64,000 bases of DNA from a virus. Shown one piece after another: positions 5,541-14,156 of this stretch. The notes beneath the pieces were generated by a model that worked only from the letters and a program-made list of their open reading frames with translations, ran no database searches and had not been told where the DNA came from. Location: the UHGV virus genome UHGV-0060643; one strand, written 5' to 3'. The position numbers and the translations under genes were made by a program. Numbering within the stretch: the first letter of the stretch is position 1; the number at the start of each line of letters is the position of its first letter.

Positions 5541-7052
5541 ATGAAGAACGTTGATGTTGCTGTACTTTATACCGACGGTAGCCATTTAACCTCACCGATG
5601 GGAACAGGCGGTGGGATTCACGGCTACCTGTTTAACAAGGAAGAGATTGTTGACGGTGGCGTTTATCGCCACCCTACCATTCCCGAAGGGATTACGACCT
5701 CTGGTTATCGCCAGATTAACAAAGAGGAAAAACTTCCTGCGCTACCGGACTCTGTTGAGTTCGTAGACTGTGTTATTCCGGTACCGAAACACCACCACTC
5801 CGATGTTGCAGAGATTGTTGCTTTTTTAACCGTTTTCGAAAAAGCACCGTTCGTTGCAAAAAACTACGTTATCTATATCGACGCGTCTTACGTTGTGAAT
5901 ACGTTTAACGATTGGATTGACGGTTGGGCTAAGCGGGACTGGCGACGGGCTGATGGAACCCCTATCGCGAACCTTGAGCTGGTTCAACGGATGTGGGAAA
6001 TTAAGAAACGTCTGAAGAAAGAAGGAAAAGGGATTCGTGTTCTTAAAATCAAAGGACACTCTGGTCACTACGGTAACGAACGAGCTGACGGGCTGGCACG
6101 AAAAGGATCATCCATCTCTGCGCACGGAGAAGGTTTAGATTATCAGGCGTACTGGTCAGCAGACGAAATCCCGGAAGAACAGCAGGAAGAAATCGTCAGT
6201 GAAGGCGTTAACGTTGCCGCGTTTCCTGATATTTGCGTAACCAAGTTCTGCTACCCGATGGTAAATGAGCAACACCCTACAGTTAAAGTAAACGGTGAAA
6301 ATCTCTATTACATGTTCGGGGGTAACCACGCAAAACAGAAGGACGATATTGTCTTCGTCGGAAAATACATCCCTGATGCGCAGTTTTGTGTGATGTTTAC
6401 ACGTGAGCCGTGGACGAACGTTTATGATTTGGTTAACGCCCACGCTGCTAAAGCCTGGGAGGGCGTACCACGTTTGCGTCAGTTTGACCCTATCGCTGTT
6501 GTGTTCAACCTGTTCGTAAAACGTAAGAAGTTTGCGGAAGCTGCGGCTAACGGTATCCCGGTTGACAAAATGCACTTTAGCGAAGACAAAAACCTGTGGA
6601 TGTACGAAGACTTGTCTATCAGTCGTATTCTGCGTCCCGCGTTATTGTCATACCGCTGCGTAACCATTCGTGATGAACTGGCAGAGTGGCTGCGTGACTG
6701 TTTGGAAGGCAAATCGAACGTTGTCTTAAATGATATTACCGATTTGCTTTATGACGAAAAAGGTAAACCCACCAAAGACTTTTACCGAAACGTGGATAAA
6801 GGGTTTGACGTTTCCATTAAAATCCCTAACGGGAAGGTTGACGTTAAAACTATTCTTACGCGTGCTATCGACATACCGACGCGTACGGAAATCAACCGTA
6901 TCAAAGAACCAAACGGGCGATTCTACATTGCCGTACGTCGTCCAGAACGTCAGTATATTGAATACGCGTTAGTGTATATCGGTGAGAAGTATCATGGTCT
7001 ATGGTGTGGTTATTATTCAAACAAACGAATATTGACCGATAAGGAACTTTGA
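5541..7052 (+). CDS. ribonuclease H domain protein with ~310-aa C-terminal extension
   Basis: RNase HI signature residues in order: YTDGS, AEIVAF, IYIDAS, HSGHYGNERADGLARKG (compare E. coli GHAGHPENERCDELAR). Confidence 0.75.
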   Translation: MKNVDVAVLYTDGSHLTSPMGTGGGIHGYLFNKEEIVDGGVYRHPTIPEGITTSGYRQINKEEKLPALPDSVEFVDCVIPVPKHHHSDVAEIVAFLTVFEKAPFVAKNYVIYIDASYVVNTFNDWIDGWAKRDWRRADGTPIANLELVQRMWEIKKRLKKEGKGIRVLKIKGHSGHYGNERADGLARKGSSISAHGEGLDYQAYWSADEIPEEQQEEIVSEGVNVAAFPDICVTKFCYPMVNEQHPTVKVNGENLYYMFGGNHAKQKDDIVFVGKYIPDAQFCVMFTREPWTNVYDLVNAHAAKAWEGVPRLRQFDPIAVVFNLFVKRKKFAEAAANGIPVDKMHFSEDKNLWMYEDLSISRILRPALLSYRCVTIRDELAEWLRDCLEGKSNVVLNDITDLLYDEKGKPTKDFYRNVDKGFDVSIKIPNGKVDVKTILTRAIDIPTRTEINRIKEPNGRFYIAVRRPERQYIEYALVYIGEKYHGLWCGYYSNKRILTDKEL

Positions 7053-8496: not shown

Positions 8497-9045
8497 ATGA
8501 AATTACTTATTGATTTCTCTCTGAGCTCGTCACGAGACAGGCTAAATAAAATACTTACCGAAATGCGAAATAAAGTGACGTTAGAACTGCACGACGCGAT
8601 AGCGGTGTACGAGAGAAAGCTAACAAAAGAGAACAACGGGGAAACCGTGGTAATCTTAGATGCTAAAGCGATGGTGGATTTTCTGGTAGACGTGTTAGAA
8701 AGGCGGATTCACGCAGTGATAGAGCGACCCTACCTGGTTCGTGTAACCGACCCAGACACTACGGTAGAATCAATACTGGAAAAGGCGTTCGTCGACGCAG
8801 CACACTATTTACAAAACCATTCCCCAGACGATTTCGAAACGATTTACGTTGGTGTTATACAGCAACAGAATGCTGAAACCAACATAGTCGATACTGTATG
8901 CTGGAGCGATATTCTTACTAATGAAACCACGTCTCGCATTCGAGATATCTTTATTGAAAATTTGGCATTAGTAAAAAGGGTGTGTAGTTCCGAGATTATT
9001 TATTTATCATCAAAACTTCAACCCGCTAAGACAAGCACCGTTTAA
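8497..9045 (+). CDS. hypothetical protein
   Basis: 182-aa ORF immediately following previous stop. Confidence 0.6.
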   Translation: MKLLIDFSLSSSRDRLNKILTEMRNKVTLELHDAIAVYERKLTKENNGETVVILDAKAMVDFLVDVLERRIHAVIERPYLVRVTDPDTTVESILEKAFVDAAHYLQNHSPDDFETIYVGVIQQQNAETNIVDTVCWSDILTNETTSRIRDIFIENLALVKRVCSSEIIYLSSKLQPAKTSTV

Positions 9046-9062
9046 CTTAAGGAGATTAAAAC

Positions 9063-9551
9063 ATGAATTTAAATCAAATTATCGCTTTGAAAAATTCCGA
9101 CATTATTCATGAATTCCTCAACCATACCGACCGTGTACATGCCACGATCAGAAATAAACTCGCGCCAATGGTCGTCGATACTCCGTGGATGGCTGGCGTT
9201 GCCGCCGACTACATCGAAAATAATTACAGAGCCCGACTTATAACGAGTCTGGATGATTTCTTTGTTGGTTTCTTTGGTGGGATCACAAAATCGTTCATCG
9301 ATAGACGGTTATACGGAATCCGTATTGAAACTTTACAATCACTAATTAACGAATACCATAACGGTTTTATCCCAGCAATTGTACCACCATATGCAGAAGG
9401 TGAGTGGCGTCGTTTCTATAGTCAAATTTGGGGTAATGAAGCACACTCACACGGTATTGTGGATATTATTAGCTACGACCAAGGTATGCTCGCATTACAC
9501 CTGTGGGAGTGGTTGAAAGCTAATTACCCAAATTACGTCAAGATCGACTAA
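9063..9551 (+). CDS. hypothetical protein
   Basis: 162-aa ORF, RBS aaggag. Confidence 0.6.
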   Translation: MNLNQIIALKNSDIIHEFLNHTDRVHATIRNKLAPMVVDTPWMAGVAADYIENNYRARLITSLDDFFVGFFGGITKSFIDRRLYGIRIETLQSLINEYHNGFIPAIVPPYAEGEWRRFYSQIWGNEAHSHGIVDIISYDQGMLALHLWEWLKANYPNYVKID

Positions 9552-9555
9552 CATA

Positions 9556-9587
9556 CACCCTAGCTTCGGCTAGGGTTGCTTTATTTT
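9556..9587 (+). terminator. intrinsic terminator
   Basis: ccctagc ttcg gctaggg hairpin followed by T-rich tract. Confidence 0.6.
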
Positions 9588-9609
9588 AACCATTTTAGGA
9601 GCATATACC

Positions 9610-10542
9610 ATGTATTTGTACAAAAGTAAAAAAGTAAAAGGTATTAAAGACTGTCTTAGACAAATGGGGAGTCAGCATCTAGAAAATGTCATGGAAGAAA
9701 ACCAAACAAAAGAAAATCCTGTCTCGAAATGGATAAAAAAGAATCGTAACCATTTAACCAATTCCTTTATACCCTACGACACTGAGTTAGGTCTCAAAGA
9801 TCCACGTTCCCTTCACGCACAAACGTTGGCAATCGGGTGGCTATATGGCGGGGTTTCCTTAATATCCAACCAAGCACTTAGAGAACTTGTTTTCGAGACT
9901 GAGATGCCCAGTAAATTCCCTGAAGAATGGTTGGACTTTATACCCGCATGGACTGTGGCAATCGACGTAGGTAAAGAGGATGAGACTTTCTTTCTCGGCT
10001 ATCGAAAAAATGGGAAGAAAAGGTTTATTATAATCGCTACAAATACTGATTACGGGTTAACAGAAGGAGTTACCACAATTGCCACTTGTTCGTTAGAGCT
10101 TCGTAGTGTAGGAAACGGGCTTGTTGAAATTGATTATACAACTGGCGTACAGACCGAAGAAGAGAAGATGTTATGGTTATCTCTGGCCAAAGCCGCCACT
10201 TCGATGATATTTCTGTGCACGCTAATCCCGCCTAATTACAGGGAGTCTTTTAATGATATTAAGTTCAGGGAAATCAAAAAGAACGGTAGTATTAGTTACG
10301 ACGTTAAACCGCGAGAACGTGATGTTAAGGTTGATATCACACCAGGACAAGTAAAATATCTAAAAGGATTTAACACCGACTTGAAAGCCATGCAGGGTAT
10401 CAAACACGCCAAAGCTGCACATATACGTCGTGCACACTGGCGTAGATACTGGGTTGGCCCAAGAAACGGTGAAAGAAAAAGAAAACTTTGCTGGATTCCA
10501 CCGACATTTGTCCGAGGCTACGTACCCCACACGCAAGACTAG
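9610..10542 (+). CDS. hypothetical protein, paralog family B (C-terminal HIRRAHW...W.PTF motif)
   Basis: RBS aggag; 310 aa; C-terminus AAHIRRAHWRRYWVGP...WIPPTF shared with next gene. Confidence 0.7.
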   Translation: MYLYKSKKVKGIKDCLRQMGSQHLENVMEENQTKENPVSKWIKKNRNHLTNSFIPYDTELGLKDPRSLHAQTLAIGWLYGGVSLISNQALRELVFETEMPSKFPEEWLDFIPAWTVAIDVGKEDETFFLGYRKNGKKRFIIIATNTDYGLTEGVTTIATCSLELRSVGNGLVEIDYTTGVQTEEEKMLWLSLAKAATSMIFLCTLIPPNYRESFNDIKFREIKKNGSISYDVKPRERDVKVDITPGQVKYLKGFNTDLKAMQGIKHAKAAHIRRAHWRRYWVGPRNGERKRKLCWIPPTFVRGYVPHTQD

Positions 10543-10552
10543 GAGAATTATA

Positions 10553-11437
10553 ATGTTAAGACGCAGAATTTATGGAGACACGCTTCGACGTATTAGTGAA
10601 GCTATAGAGACTGCACACAAAGACTTGTTTGGTCTGAAAGAAGATCGTTTTCTAACGTTTGTCAGGGAACACAAGAGACAACTTCCCGTAACCTTTCTGC
10701 CCGTTAACGACCCAACGTACCGTGAGTTCGGCACCACCAAACAGGTGCCGTATTCTATTCGTCAGTCGTTAGGTTTGGGTTGGCAATACGCAGGTATTGA
10801 AATTATCTCTGATAAAGAGCTGATGGGATTACTTGCAGACACAGAACGTTTAACGGATATTCCGTACGCGTGGATTGAAGCCATCCCTTCATTCACCTTT
10901 TCCGTGACTGTCAAGATTAACGAACTTCCTGCTACGCTCTTTATCGGTCGTCGTAAATTCGAAGGTGAAGAAGTATTGTTCGTTTTACGATGGGTGGAGA
11001 TAAATCAGCGGCACTGTTGGACAACCAAGATTTATCGGTTCAACAGAAAGGCAGATGACTTTGTTAGTTTAGAGCCTTACTTTGCTAACGAGTCAAAGGA
11101 CGAGGAACTTCTGGATGAGGTACATATCGGTTTATATCTTTCCTCGCGGGTGAAGAAATCGGAACGCGAGAGACGGGAATACCGTGGTAGAACGACACGT
11201 TACGTACCTGATACAGAAATCCTCCCACGGAGAGAACCTGTCGTTGTTGACGTAAGTCCAGTACAACGCGAAGACTTAGAAAAACAACGCAGGGAAGGCA
11301 GGAGAATCTGTTTAACGCCTCATCGCGCAGCGCACATACGCAGGGCACATTGGAAACGGGTCTGGTGTGGGCCAATGACAGGACCACGCTGGCAGGAGTG
11401 GCGATGGATTGCGCCCACCTTTATATCTGGTTTTTAG
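10553..11437 (+). CDS. hypothetical protein, paralog family B
   Basis: ATG 10553 with RBS aggaga (track ORF starts earlier in overlap); C-terminus AAHIRRAHWKRVWCGP...WIAPTF; internal block LGLGWQYAGIEIIS matches LAIGWLYGGVSLIS of previous gene. Confidence 0.7.
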   Translation: MLRRRIYGDTLRRISEAIETAHKDLFGLKEDRFLTFVREHKRQLPVTFLPVNDPTYREFGTTKQVPYSIRQSLGLGWQYAGIEIISDKELMGLLADTERLTDIPYAWIEAIPSFTFSVTVKINELPATLFIGRRKFEGEEVLFVLRWVEINQRHCWTTKIYRFNRKADDFVSLEPYFANESKDEELLDEVHIGLYLSSRVKKSERERREYRGRTTRYVPDTEILPRREPVVVDVSPVQREDLEKQRREGRRICLTPHRAAHIRRAHWKRVWCGPMTGPRWQEWRWIAPTFISGF

Positions 11438-11452
11438 CGTGAAAATAAAGAT

Positions 11453-11500
11453 TACCCCTAGACCTTGTGGTCTAGGGGTAGCTTTTACTTTTTATTTTTT
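11453..11500. terminator. bidirectional intrinsic terminator between convergent genes
   Basis: tacccctagacc ttgt ggtctaggggta hairpin with T-tract on plus strand and A-tract upstream. Confidence 0.6.
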
Positions 11501-12247
11501 GTTTGCCTTCAGCGCTTTCAGGCGTTCAGCCGTCACGTTCAGACATTCAATCAATTCGTTCACCTGTTTCATGAACAAACCAAACAGTTCAACCCAATCG
11601 GATGCAAAGTCTAACATCGCTGTCAGTTCTTTTGCCACGTTAGGATGAATGTTTTGTTCAGACAGAATCGTTGCAGAGGCTTTGATGGACTCGATGGATT
11701 TATCGATGTTCGTACGAAGTTTCTTCGTGATTTCAACGTTCAGTGCTTTTGCACGGTTAAACGCAATATCGATCTCCGTAGCACTGTGATACGTTTTCTC
11801 AATCGGACGCTGGTCAATAACGTTGTTGGTGTAAGACTTAGCCAACTGGTTAACCAGGTCTTTCGGATTCACGTTACGTAACGGAATGTTAACGTTTTTA
11901 TAACGGAAACCGATAGGTAATGACAGTACGCCCACATCATGTGTAAGGGCGGAAAGTTGCAACTCAACAGGTAAAAGGACACCGTCGTAGATCTTCTGTA
12001 ATGAACTCCACACCGATTCTAAGCGGTTAATGTGATCCATTACGTAGGTATTGAAGCCTGGCGGTACAATAACCAACATGCCTGCAAAGTGTAAGAATTT
12101 TTCCTGTTGCATCCACTTGGAAACGTCTGACATGTCGTCGTAAGTGGTTAATGCAATCTCTTGTTGAGGGCCACTGAACCCTTTGGGTAAGATTGCAGAC
12201 GCTTTAGCGGCAAAGCTAGTTAACGCTGCAAGTGGATTTACGTTCAT
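11492..12247 (-). CDS. hypothetical protein
   Basis: 251-aa minus-strand ORF, ATG with gagg RBS. Confidence 0.65.
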   Translation of the reverse strand: MNVNPLAALTSFAAKASAILPKGFSGPQQEIALTTYDDMSDVSKWMQQEKFLHFAGMLVIVPPGFNTYVMDHINRLESVWSSLQKIYDGVLLPVELQLSALTHDVGVLSLPIGFRYKNVNIPLRNVNPKDLVNQLAKSYTNNVIDQRPIEKTYHSATEIDIAFNRAKALNVEITKKLRTNIDKSIESIKASATILSEQNIHPNVAKELTAMLDFASDWVELFGLFMKQVNELIECLNVTAERLKALKANKK

Positions 12248-12659: not shown

Positions 12660-14156
12660 ATGGCAGGCCCAACTAAGCAAGTTATCGGTGAAGTAATTCG
12701 TCCTCGTTTTAACGTTTATACCATCATGGACCACGCCTTAGGCAACTACGAAAGAGGCGAAGATGGTTTATACTACCTTAACGGTGGTTTTGCCCACATC
12801 ATGGGTTTCGCGGGTCGTGGTAACACCTTCAAATCCACACTGTTGGATTTCTGTATCTTCCAAATCCTGCAACGCTATAAAGCGGAGTGGGGTTCGAAAT
12901 ACGATACCGAAGTGTCTGCTGCCCTCGATCGCTTAGAGACCGGTTATATTTCTGCCATGCACGCCAACGGTATTGACGATGGAACTTCGGTACTGGAACT
13001 TATTCACGAAGGTCGTTATAACCTCGTTGGTTCTGACGTGATGCCAGGGGAACAATATTACAGTGACTATATTCGTGATGAAGTGGAAAAACGCTTCAAG
13101 CAGTATATGTCTGGTAAAACGCGTGTAACGCCGTTCCTTGACCCGGTTCGTCGTAAGCAAAAAGAAATCCTTGACCCGTGGCTGTATTCTATCGACTCCC
13201 TGTCGGAGTGGCACTCGTCTTCTCTGGAAGACAAGCACGCTAAAACGGATATCGGTGATTCCGATCAGAACATCCTCAACGCCCACGACGCCTTACAGAA
13301 ATCGAACATGATGAGCCGTTGGCCGTCTGCGTTTGCCCGTGGTGGTTTCTACATGGGCTTTGTTGCACAGATGGCCGATGACTCCGGTAAGGCGATGGCG
13401 GGCGGTCGTCAAGGACAGAAAGCAAACGCGAAACTGCTGGACGATGCGAACGACGATCTCAAATTCGCAGGGATTCCTCGTCGTCAATTAAGTTTCTTGA
13501 CTAACTCGTTTATTGTTGCGACAAAATCAGGCGAGCTGAAAAAAGACCAGAGTTATAACGCCCAGACCGGTGTTAACGAAGAACTTTACCCAACCGCACG
13601 TTCAAAAGCCATGAACGCGTCGGTTAACGACCTGAAAGTTATCACCTTTACGCAGTACCGTGCTAAAGGCGGTCACACGGGCGTGAAGTTCCAGATGATC
13701 TTCTCGCAAGAGATGGGTCTACTGTATCACCTGAGCCTGTGGCATTACCTGAGTGACACTCTGAAAAAATCCGAATTTGGATTTACATCCAGCGGTAGCG
13801 GTGGTTCCATTAAAGAACTCCAGATTCTGCCTGGTGTTAAATTCCAGCGTACGACGATTCGCGACATGATCGACGATAACCCGAAACTGCGTCGGGCATT
13901 AGAAATCACGGCCGCGATTGCGTACATGCAGAACAACTACCATCGTTTAGAGGTTAAATACCACCTCACGATGGAAGAAATCTACAAACTCATTGATGAG
14001 AAATGGGATTGGAATGAGATTCTGGAGAACACCGTAGAATACTGGATGTTTAAAGACCAAGAAACGAAAGGTGGTAAACGCACGTTAACTGCCCGTACGA
14101 TTCTGGGTATGGCCGTGGACGGCCTGGAACCGAAGTTCCTCACCAAAAAGAAATAA
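12660..14156 (+). CDS. RecA-superfamily ATPase, UvsX-like recombinase candidate
   Basis: deviant Walker A GFAGRGNTFKST resembling the T4 UvsX P-loop (AGPSKSFKS) and a downstream Walker-B-like YSIDSL; recalled by eye, not aligned. Confidence 0.45.
   Translation: MAGPTKQVIGEVIRPRFNVYTIMDHALGNYERGEDGLYYLNGGFAHIMGFAGRGNTFKSTLLDFCIFQILQRYKAEWGSKYDTEVSAALDRLETGYISAMHANGIDDGTSVLELIHEGRYNLVGSDVMPGEQYYSDYIRDEVEKRFKQYMSGKTRVTPFLDPVRRKQKEILDPWLYSIDSLSEWHSSSLEDKHAKTDIGDSDQNILNAHDALQKSNMMSRWPSAFARGGFYMGFVAQMADDSGKAMAGGRQGQKANAKLLDDANDDLKFAGIPRRQLSFLTNSFIVATKSGELKKDQSYNAQTGVNEELYPTARSKAMNASVNDLKVITFTQYRAKGGHTGVKFQMIFSQEMGLLYHLSLWHYLSDTLKKSEFGFTSSGSGGSIKELQILPGVKFQRTTIRDMIDDNPKLRRALEITAAIAYMQNNYHRLEVKYHLTMEEIYKLIDEKWDWNEILENTVEYWMFKDQETKGGKRTLTARTILGMAVDGLEPKFLTKKK

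Follow-up and report, generated by a model that had tools for sequence, protein, structure and literature searches.

The 64,000-nucleotide stretch of the virus genome UHGV-0060643 analysed here (hereafter the window) carries two adjacent genes, A and B, whose products share a C-terminal HIRRAHW...W.PTF motif, and the question raised by this locus is what such a pair of proteins does for the phage. A preliminary description made from the letters alone had regarded the motif as one of unknown function and the pair as a recent duplication of the kind found in host-interaction or anti-defence loci. Judged by profile comparison, the tail is the signature motif of the AcrVA2/FinQ family (Pfam PF26125, AcrVA2-like). 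The genes sit in an accessory slot of a chimallivirus genome, and we put the chance at roughly 60% that they encode AcrVA2-like effectors in which a variable recognition part is joined to a constant domain with the motif H-x-R-x-x-H (HxRxxH), and that these effectors silence the mRNA of targets that are probably different.

Genes A and B align as full-length paralogs

Gene A (310 aa) lies at 9610-10542 and gene B (294 aa) at 10553-11437, both on the plus strand. The sequence AGGAG is found 7-8 nt 5' of each start and provides the ribosome-binding sites at 9597-9601 for gene A and at 10541-10545 for gene B, the latter overlapping the stop codon of gene A. Both genes and both C-terminal strings given in the preliminary description were found where it had placed them: the tail of gene A is AAHIRRAHWRRYWVGP...WIPPTF and that of gene B is AAHIRRAHWKRVWCGP...WIAPTF. 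When the two proteins were aligned by BLASTP, they were 26% identical over ~300 aligned columns (E=3e-23), and because this match spans the full length of both, the similarity is neither confined to the tail nor a likeness of a few residues. The resemblance is far beyond chance and marks A and B, in sequence, as full-length, diverged paralogs. The ratio of nonsynonymous to synonymous substitution rates (dN/dS), calculated against orthologs in related contigs, was 0.12-0.25 for gene A and 0.04-0.10 for gene B; both are real genes under purifying selection. The preliminary description had also proposed a search for further paralogs, and within the 64-kb window neither tblastn nor family hidden Markov models (HMMs) run against all 448 six-frame open reading frames (ORFs) found a third copy.

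The common tail is a signature of the AcrVA2-like family

The tail can be given a family: its HxRxxH(W) core is the conserved signature of PF26125, and the His, Arg and His of this signature are experimentally required in AcrVA2. In four related contigs (L004 and L007-L009), each of the two paired genes has a precomputed PF26125 match ('AcrVA2-like'). A clade profile made from gene A, gene B and nine relatives had a single meaningful match among PDB sequences, AcrVA2 itself (7CI1/7CI2, E=1.5e-5), with 97-303 aligned to 99-317 in an alignment that includes PHIRRGHWHGYWQG...RVRWQPAVFV. Gene A alone also matched AcrVA2 7ci1 in a search of PDB sequences (E=8.9e-5), and gene B alone had no match to AcrVA2 there. 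The clade profile aligned with a profile of the broad family over columns 74-307 (hhalign 99.8%, E=1e-28), the broad-family profile aligned with 7ci1 over its full length (E=1.3e-38), and a broad-family HMM from which the window-related sequences had been left out recovered gene A at 1.2e-15 and gene B at 6e-11.

The family is large. An HMM search of 1.84 billion cluster representatives gave 2,986 clusters at E<=1e-3 (1,218 at E<=1e-10), most of them 300-350 aa long and aligned from about position 75 to the C-terminus; these matches also included longer members of 404-540 aa that are extended at the N-terminus. From a seed of 104 diverse members, a word-indexed search gave 191 proteins, and PF26125 was precomputed on all of the 120 matches listed, two of which are named 'AcrVA2 family anti-CRISPR protein' by their source. 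With gene A alone as the seed, the word-indexed search returned only three close relatives, so that seeding with a diverse alignment was needed.

Other annotation resources were less informative. When A, B and their relatives were compared by hmmscan with local copies of Pfam, NCBIfam and PADLOC, no meaningful match was obtained; the local Pfam-A copy was silent even for proteins with a precomputed PF26125 match, and the model seems to be absent from that copy. One PADLOC match, to mREase_IV at E=0.013, was dismissed as chance. In PHROGs both proteins fall into phrog_6160, where the function is given as unknown, and a literature search for 'PF26125' found nothing. With this locus, many 'hypothetical proteins' can be re-annotated, among them the members of phrog_6160, Asesino gp235 and EC001 MGA_211.

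Predicted structures keep the fold and the motif residues of AcrVA2

An AlphaFold2 model of gene A, made with a 127-sequence alignment, reached a predicted local distance difference test score (pLDDT) of 80.2 and a predicted template modelling score (pTM) of 0.77, and the model of gene B reached 71.8 and 0.66, respectively. The predicted architecture is that of AcrVA2, with an N-terminal helical domain, a middle alpha/beta domain and a small C-terminal beta domain. Five columns, in gene A numbering P104, P112, H271, R273 and H276, do not vary among the 104 diverse sequences; G283 and W295 join them in the 127-sequence alignment, and W77 is nearly invariant in both alignments.

In the residue map, H286, R288 and H291 of AcrVA2 correspond to H271, R273 and H276 of gene A (H271-I-R273-R-A-H276, 10420-10437, plus strand) and to H261, R263 and H266 of gene B (H261-I-R263-R-A-H266, 11333-11350, plus strand). 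The AcrVA2 substitutions H286A, R288A and H291A abolished the down-regulation of mRNA and protein, with binding kept and even stabilised, and W79A and D89A caused a partial (moderate) loss of function (bioRxiv 10.1101/2022.11.29.518452). The residue equivalent to W79 is W77 in both proteins, and that equivalent to D89 is N87 in gene A and D87 in gene B, a column occupied by D, E or N in most family members. The C-terminal domains are strongly basic (isoelectric point, pI, 10.5 in gene A and 11.0 in gene B) and rich in His, Arg and Trp, and the middle domains are acidic (pI 4.9 and 5.8).

Gene A is a mosaic with a hypervariable patch

We compared the window with contig L004, in which the flanking genes are 96-100% identical with a synonymous divergence (dS) of ~0.1. 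Gene B was 99% identical (dS 0.06), and gene A fell into two parts: aa 228-310, the C-terminal domain (10291-10539, plus strand), were 99% identical with a dS of 0.21, whereas aa 1-227, comprising the N-terminal helices and the middle domain (9610-10290, plus strand), were only 62% identical with a dS of 1.19. The contrast shows that aa 1-227 have been replaced by recombination, with the junction just before the motif domain. By analogy with AcrVA2, the variable, recombining module would be the putative target-recognition part, and the constant, basic module of aa 228-310 a putative effector-type part.

The variation in gene A is concentrated in aa 146-190 (10045-10179, plus strand), which are predicted to form a beta-hairpin and loop in the middle domain. 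Between gene A alleles this patch is 31-36% identical, compared with 61-78% for the neighbouring segments, and in an allele that is 97% identical overall the patch is 84% identical and every other segment 99-100%. The dN/dS is 0.52 in the patch, 0.13-0.22 in the neighbouring variable segments and 0.02 in the C-terminal domain. The corresponding patch of gene B is also its least conserved part in the comparison with the ortholog P0011 (26%). In a low-confidence alignment, the patch includes the column of AcrVA2 D195, which is among the residues reported to contact the Cas12a peptide in 7CI2 (bioRxiv 10.1101/2022.11.29.518452).

Matches to the motif domain were also obtained in other phage records. 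In RisingSun (MF459646, 128869-129135) and Yoloswag (KY448244), tblastn matched only the C-terminal ~85-aa HxRxxH module, and the RisingSun gene with this module is annotated 'putative mycothiosynthase'; these matches suggest that other, unrelated N-terminal parts may be joined to the module as well. A similarly short match in Alexandravirus-like Erwinia phages reflects the sensitivity of tblastn with the EC001 query, the homolog otherwise being aligned over ~74% of gene A.

The pair occupies an accessory slot of an SPN3US-like giant phage

By megablast, the locus has no match among phage records. At the protein level, the region is collinear with Erwinia phage Asesino, with Escherichia phage EC001 (species Seoulvirus SPN3US) and with Alexandravirus phages, and the order of the slot is an RNase H-like gene (5541-7052), several small genes, the AcrVA2-like gene or genes, a convergent 251-aa gene (11492-12247, minus strand), a 99-aa gene and a UvsX-like gene (12660-14156) whose product is 81% identical to the SPN3US protein. 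Seoulvirus and Erskinevirus are classified in Chimalliviridae. The protein synteny, the identity of the UvsX-like protein and this classification together lead us to assign the window to an uncultured giant phage of the SPN3US kind, related to SPN3US and Asesino within Chimalliviridae. Near-identical metagenomic contigs of up to 224 kb exist, and the isolated phages closest to it have Salmonella, Escherichia and Erwinia as hosts.

The number of AcrVA2-like genes in the slot varies: none in SPN3US, one in EC001, Asesino, ChrisDB, SaP7 and the Alexandravirus phages, and two in the lineage of the window. In SPN3US (JN641803, 186719-186782) a 62-bp gap between gp213 and gp214 stands in place of the gene, and within the same species group EC001, Lh1B and JN03 carry it; the SaP7 allele is 40% identical to that of EC001. 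The single-copy homologs (Asesino gp235, EC001 MGA_211 and those of ChrisDB, SaP7 and Alexandravirus) are all annotated 'hypothetical protein' and align with the pair over the full length at 22-31% identity. The slot is therefore accessory in content and fixed in position between the RNase H and UvsX-like genes.

The gene evolves much faster than its neighbours, to judge from sequence identity: gene A and its homologs in EC001 and Asesino share ~28-30% identity, compared with 81% for the UvsX-like protein. Contrary to what had been supposed, the duplication itself is not recent, since the copies are only 26% identical and the pair is kept in diverged relatives, including contigs whose gene A allele is only 72% identical to that of the window, and since the gene B ortholog P0011 is 63% identical. 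In a neighbour-joining tree made with no bootstrap, A and B are sister clades inside a Seoulvirus/Erskinevirus-like group, which tentatively suggests that a lineage-specific duplication gave rise to them. The earlier guess of a host-interaction or anti-defence role goes in the right direction: the genes belong to an AcrVA2-like family of anti-CRISPR and inter-element conflict proteins, and they show the presence, absence and allele swaps usual for such genes.

Hairpins are present on both sides of the two genes. A pattern scan found, directly 5' of gene A, a terminator-like GC hairpin followed by a run of T (9557-9576, plus strand), which is a consensus match only and may be the 5' boundary of the two-gene unit. 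The scan also found a perfect hairpin with a 13-bp stem and runs of T on both strands (11452-11481) in the gap that separates gene B from the convergent 251-aa gene; it is likely to be a bidirectional terminator and is kept in contig L008. When the sequence 5' of gene A was scanned for sigma-70 promoters, nothing convincing was found, and there were fewer sites than in shuffled sequence.

The region directly 5' of gene A is a second recombination or indel hotspot. Around 9016-9400 of the window, the near-identical relatives L004, L007 and L008 carry ~870-985 bp, within which lies a 174-aa gene that has no counterpart in the window. The 162-aa gene of the window (9063-9551) is 56-60% identical to the 161-aa gene of these relatives, compared with 96-100% for the flanking genes.

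What the pair may do

Marino et al. (bioRxiv 10.1101/2022.11.29.518452) reported that cas12a mRNA and protein are reduced more than ten-fold with AcrVA2, regardless of promoter and codon usage, and that AcrVA2 recognises an N-terminal, LSKT-containing Cas12a polypeptide. The authors describe it as the first protein of a prokaryote for which the destruction of a specific mRNA was shown to follow recognition of the nascent polypeptide that this mRNA encodes. For the window proteins, the family, the fold, the conserved motif, the modular allele swapping and the accessory nature of the slot are shown by the data, and the mechanism, the domain roles and the class of target are reasoned by analogy with AcrVA2. 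The variable N-terminal and middle domains of each protein would most likely attach to one particular target polypeptide, probably while it is leaving the ribosome, and the constant basic C-terminal domain with its HxRxxH motif would then trigger the loss of the mRNA of that target. Because the paralogs differ strongly in the recognition part, two different targets are probable, and A and B would then silence two different proteins of the host or of a rival element.

A more specific version of this proposal is tentative, and we would sooner doubt it than rely on it: that A and B are polypeptide-directed mRNA-silencing effectors acting on two host proteins other than Cas12a, that aa 1-227, and notably aa 146-190, set their specificity, and that the HxRxxH domain of 83 aa serves as a universal effector. 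Such targets might be, for example, defences that act on RNA, on translation or at the pre-nucleus stage, which would still threaten a nucleus-forming phage. If this is true, the natural allele series of near-identical phages would already map the ways in which the family changes its targets.

Several points weigh against the proposal of AcrVA2-like effectors. Mechanism and target are extrapolated across ~10-12% structure-aligned identity to AcrVA2, 7ci1 was not among the structures that Foldseek retrieved from the PDB, and the membership of PF26125 rests on precomputed matches to orthologs and not to the window proteins themselves. Gene A has N87 at the position of AcrVA2 D89, where the change to alanine causes a moderate loss of function, although gene B keeps the Asp. 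The high dS of the swapped segment indicates recombination and not necessarily positive selection, dN/dS being below 1 everywhere. How AcrVA2 destroys mRNA was left unexplained in the supporting paper, which is a preprint (bioRxiv 10.1101/2022.11.29.518452). Finally, Cas12a is still conceivable as a target, with a very small probability.

Of the other explanations, the one that survives best is that A and B act on rival mobile elements or co-infecting phages, in a competition or exclusion of the FinQ kind. FinQ, whose gene is present on more than 500 enterobacterial plasmids, most of them conjugative, lowers tra mRNA and inhibits the transfer of the F plasmid; FinQ from an IncI1 plasmid aligned with the jumbo-phage clade profile over columns 74-303 (hhalign 98.8%, E=1.3e-16), and allele swapping together with presence or absence of the gene would suit any conflict gene. 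This explanation relies on the molecular mechanism of the effector proposal, from which only its class of target sets it apart, and this makes it a sub-case rather than a true alternative, and taken by itself it seems unlikely.

It is also improbable that A and B are phage-internal regulators, which would shut off phage or host mRNAs at set times within a replication and recombination module. The fixed syntenic position from RNase H to the UvsX-like gene across Seoulvirus, Erskinevirus and Alexandravirus-like genomes would fit such a role, as would the terminator-like hairpins that flank the two-gene unit. However, SPN3US is viable without the gene, the gene evolves far faster (~28-44% identity, compared with 81% for UvsX), and the recognition modules are exchanged between near-identical phages; the absence, the fast evolution and the exchange suit an accessory conflict gene and not a core regulator.

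No more probable is the idea, close to what the preliminary description had read from the basic and aromatic tail, that the tail is a generic module for binding nucleic acid or metal, through which the proteins would engage DNA or RNA directly, with no recognition of a polypeptide. The C-terminal domains are indeed basic and rich in His, Arg and Trp, and since they are so strongly basic, contact with RNA or the ribosome remains plausible; the biochemical activity of the motif is not settled even in AcrVA2, and a direct RNase or RNA-binding role would be compatible with the phenotype of the family. In AcrVA2, the motif is needed for the down-regulation of mRNA and dispensable for the binding of the target (bioRxiv 10.1101/2022.11.29.518452).

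The least probable explanation, favoured by the naming of the family after a validated Cas12a inhibitor, by the common motif and fold, and by a report of AcrVA2-like proteins 'that may function as Acrs' (anti-CRISPR proteins) in huge phages, is that A and B are bona fide type V-A anti-CRISPRs against Cas12a as AcrVA2 is: family members are typically found in bacteria without Cas12a (bioRxiv 10.1101/2022.11.29.518452), the closest isolated relatives grow on Salmonella, Escherichia and Erwinia, the protein shell that Chimalliviridae build around the phage DNA blocks DNA-targeting CRISPR according to the literature, the recognition domains are only ~10-12% identical to AcrVA2, and a pair of paralogs so unlike each other would hardly be expected for a single target. 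Cas12a is thus unlikely because the isolated relatives infect Enterobacterales and belong to the nucleus-forming, DNA-shielding chimalliviruses.

Comparison with AcrVA2 and FinQ

AcrVA2 homologs in megaphages and huge phages are already in the literature. What is added here is a conserved tandem pair in a chimallivirus lineage, a slot with zero, one or two copies, an allele swap at the level of domains and a hypervariable patch. An AcrVA2-like gene is here accessory and rapidly exchanged in SPN3US-like chimalliviruses, which should have no need of a Cas12a inhibitor. The locus also gives experimental handles on retargeting, the variable part being separate from the motif domain, the paralogs lying side by side and SPN3US naturally being without the gene.

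AcrVA2, an anti-CRISPR of a Moraxella bovoculi prophage, shares with the products of genes A and B the AcrVA2-like family, the HxRxxH motif and the fold. In a structure-based alignment the identity is ~10-12%, and the N-terminal ~70 residues are not alignable by sequence. The carriers differ as well, a Moraxella prophage for AcrVA2 and a lytic SPN3US-like giant phage with isolated kin on Enterobacterales for genes A and B. Unlike AcrVA2, A and B form a tandem pair and have no acrVA1-like gene among their annotated neighbours, and their target, in contrast to that of AcrVA2, is very unlikely to be Cas12a. The trend seen between gene A alleles also holds for AcrVA2, which resembles FinQ and other homologs in its conserved C-terminal domain and diverges from them at the N-terminus; these homologs, including FinQ and megaphage proteins, are mostly found where Cas12a is absent, and other targets have been proposed for them (bioRxiv 10.1101/2022.11.29.518452).

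In E. coli IncI1 plasmid NZ_CP010142, the RefSeq coding sequence of finQ (259 aa, start 1630) appears to be truncated at its N-terminus; the ORF at 1318-2409 encodes 363 aa, and the homology to the family, including the conserved Trp, begins 5' of the annotated start.

FinQ, whose gene was found on the enterobacterial plasmids with AcrVA2 as the query, carries the matching motif PHIRRGHWHxYWTG...W.PP. It is plasmid-borne, longer (a 363-aa ORF) and different in its N-terminal region from A and B, and its pairwise similarity to gene A covers only the C-terminal motif. FinQ is carried by conjugative plasmids, and genes A and B lie in a giant-phage genome with phage synteny, so that they stand apart from the FinQ class although the homology is clear. 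From FinQ it is nevertheless clear that Cas12a is not the only target of the family and that the mRNA of the target is lowered.

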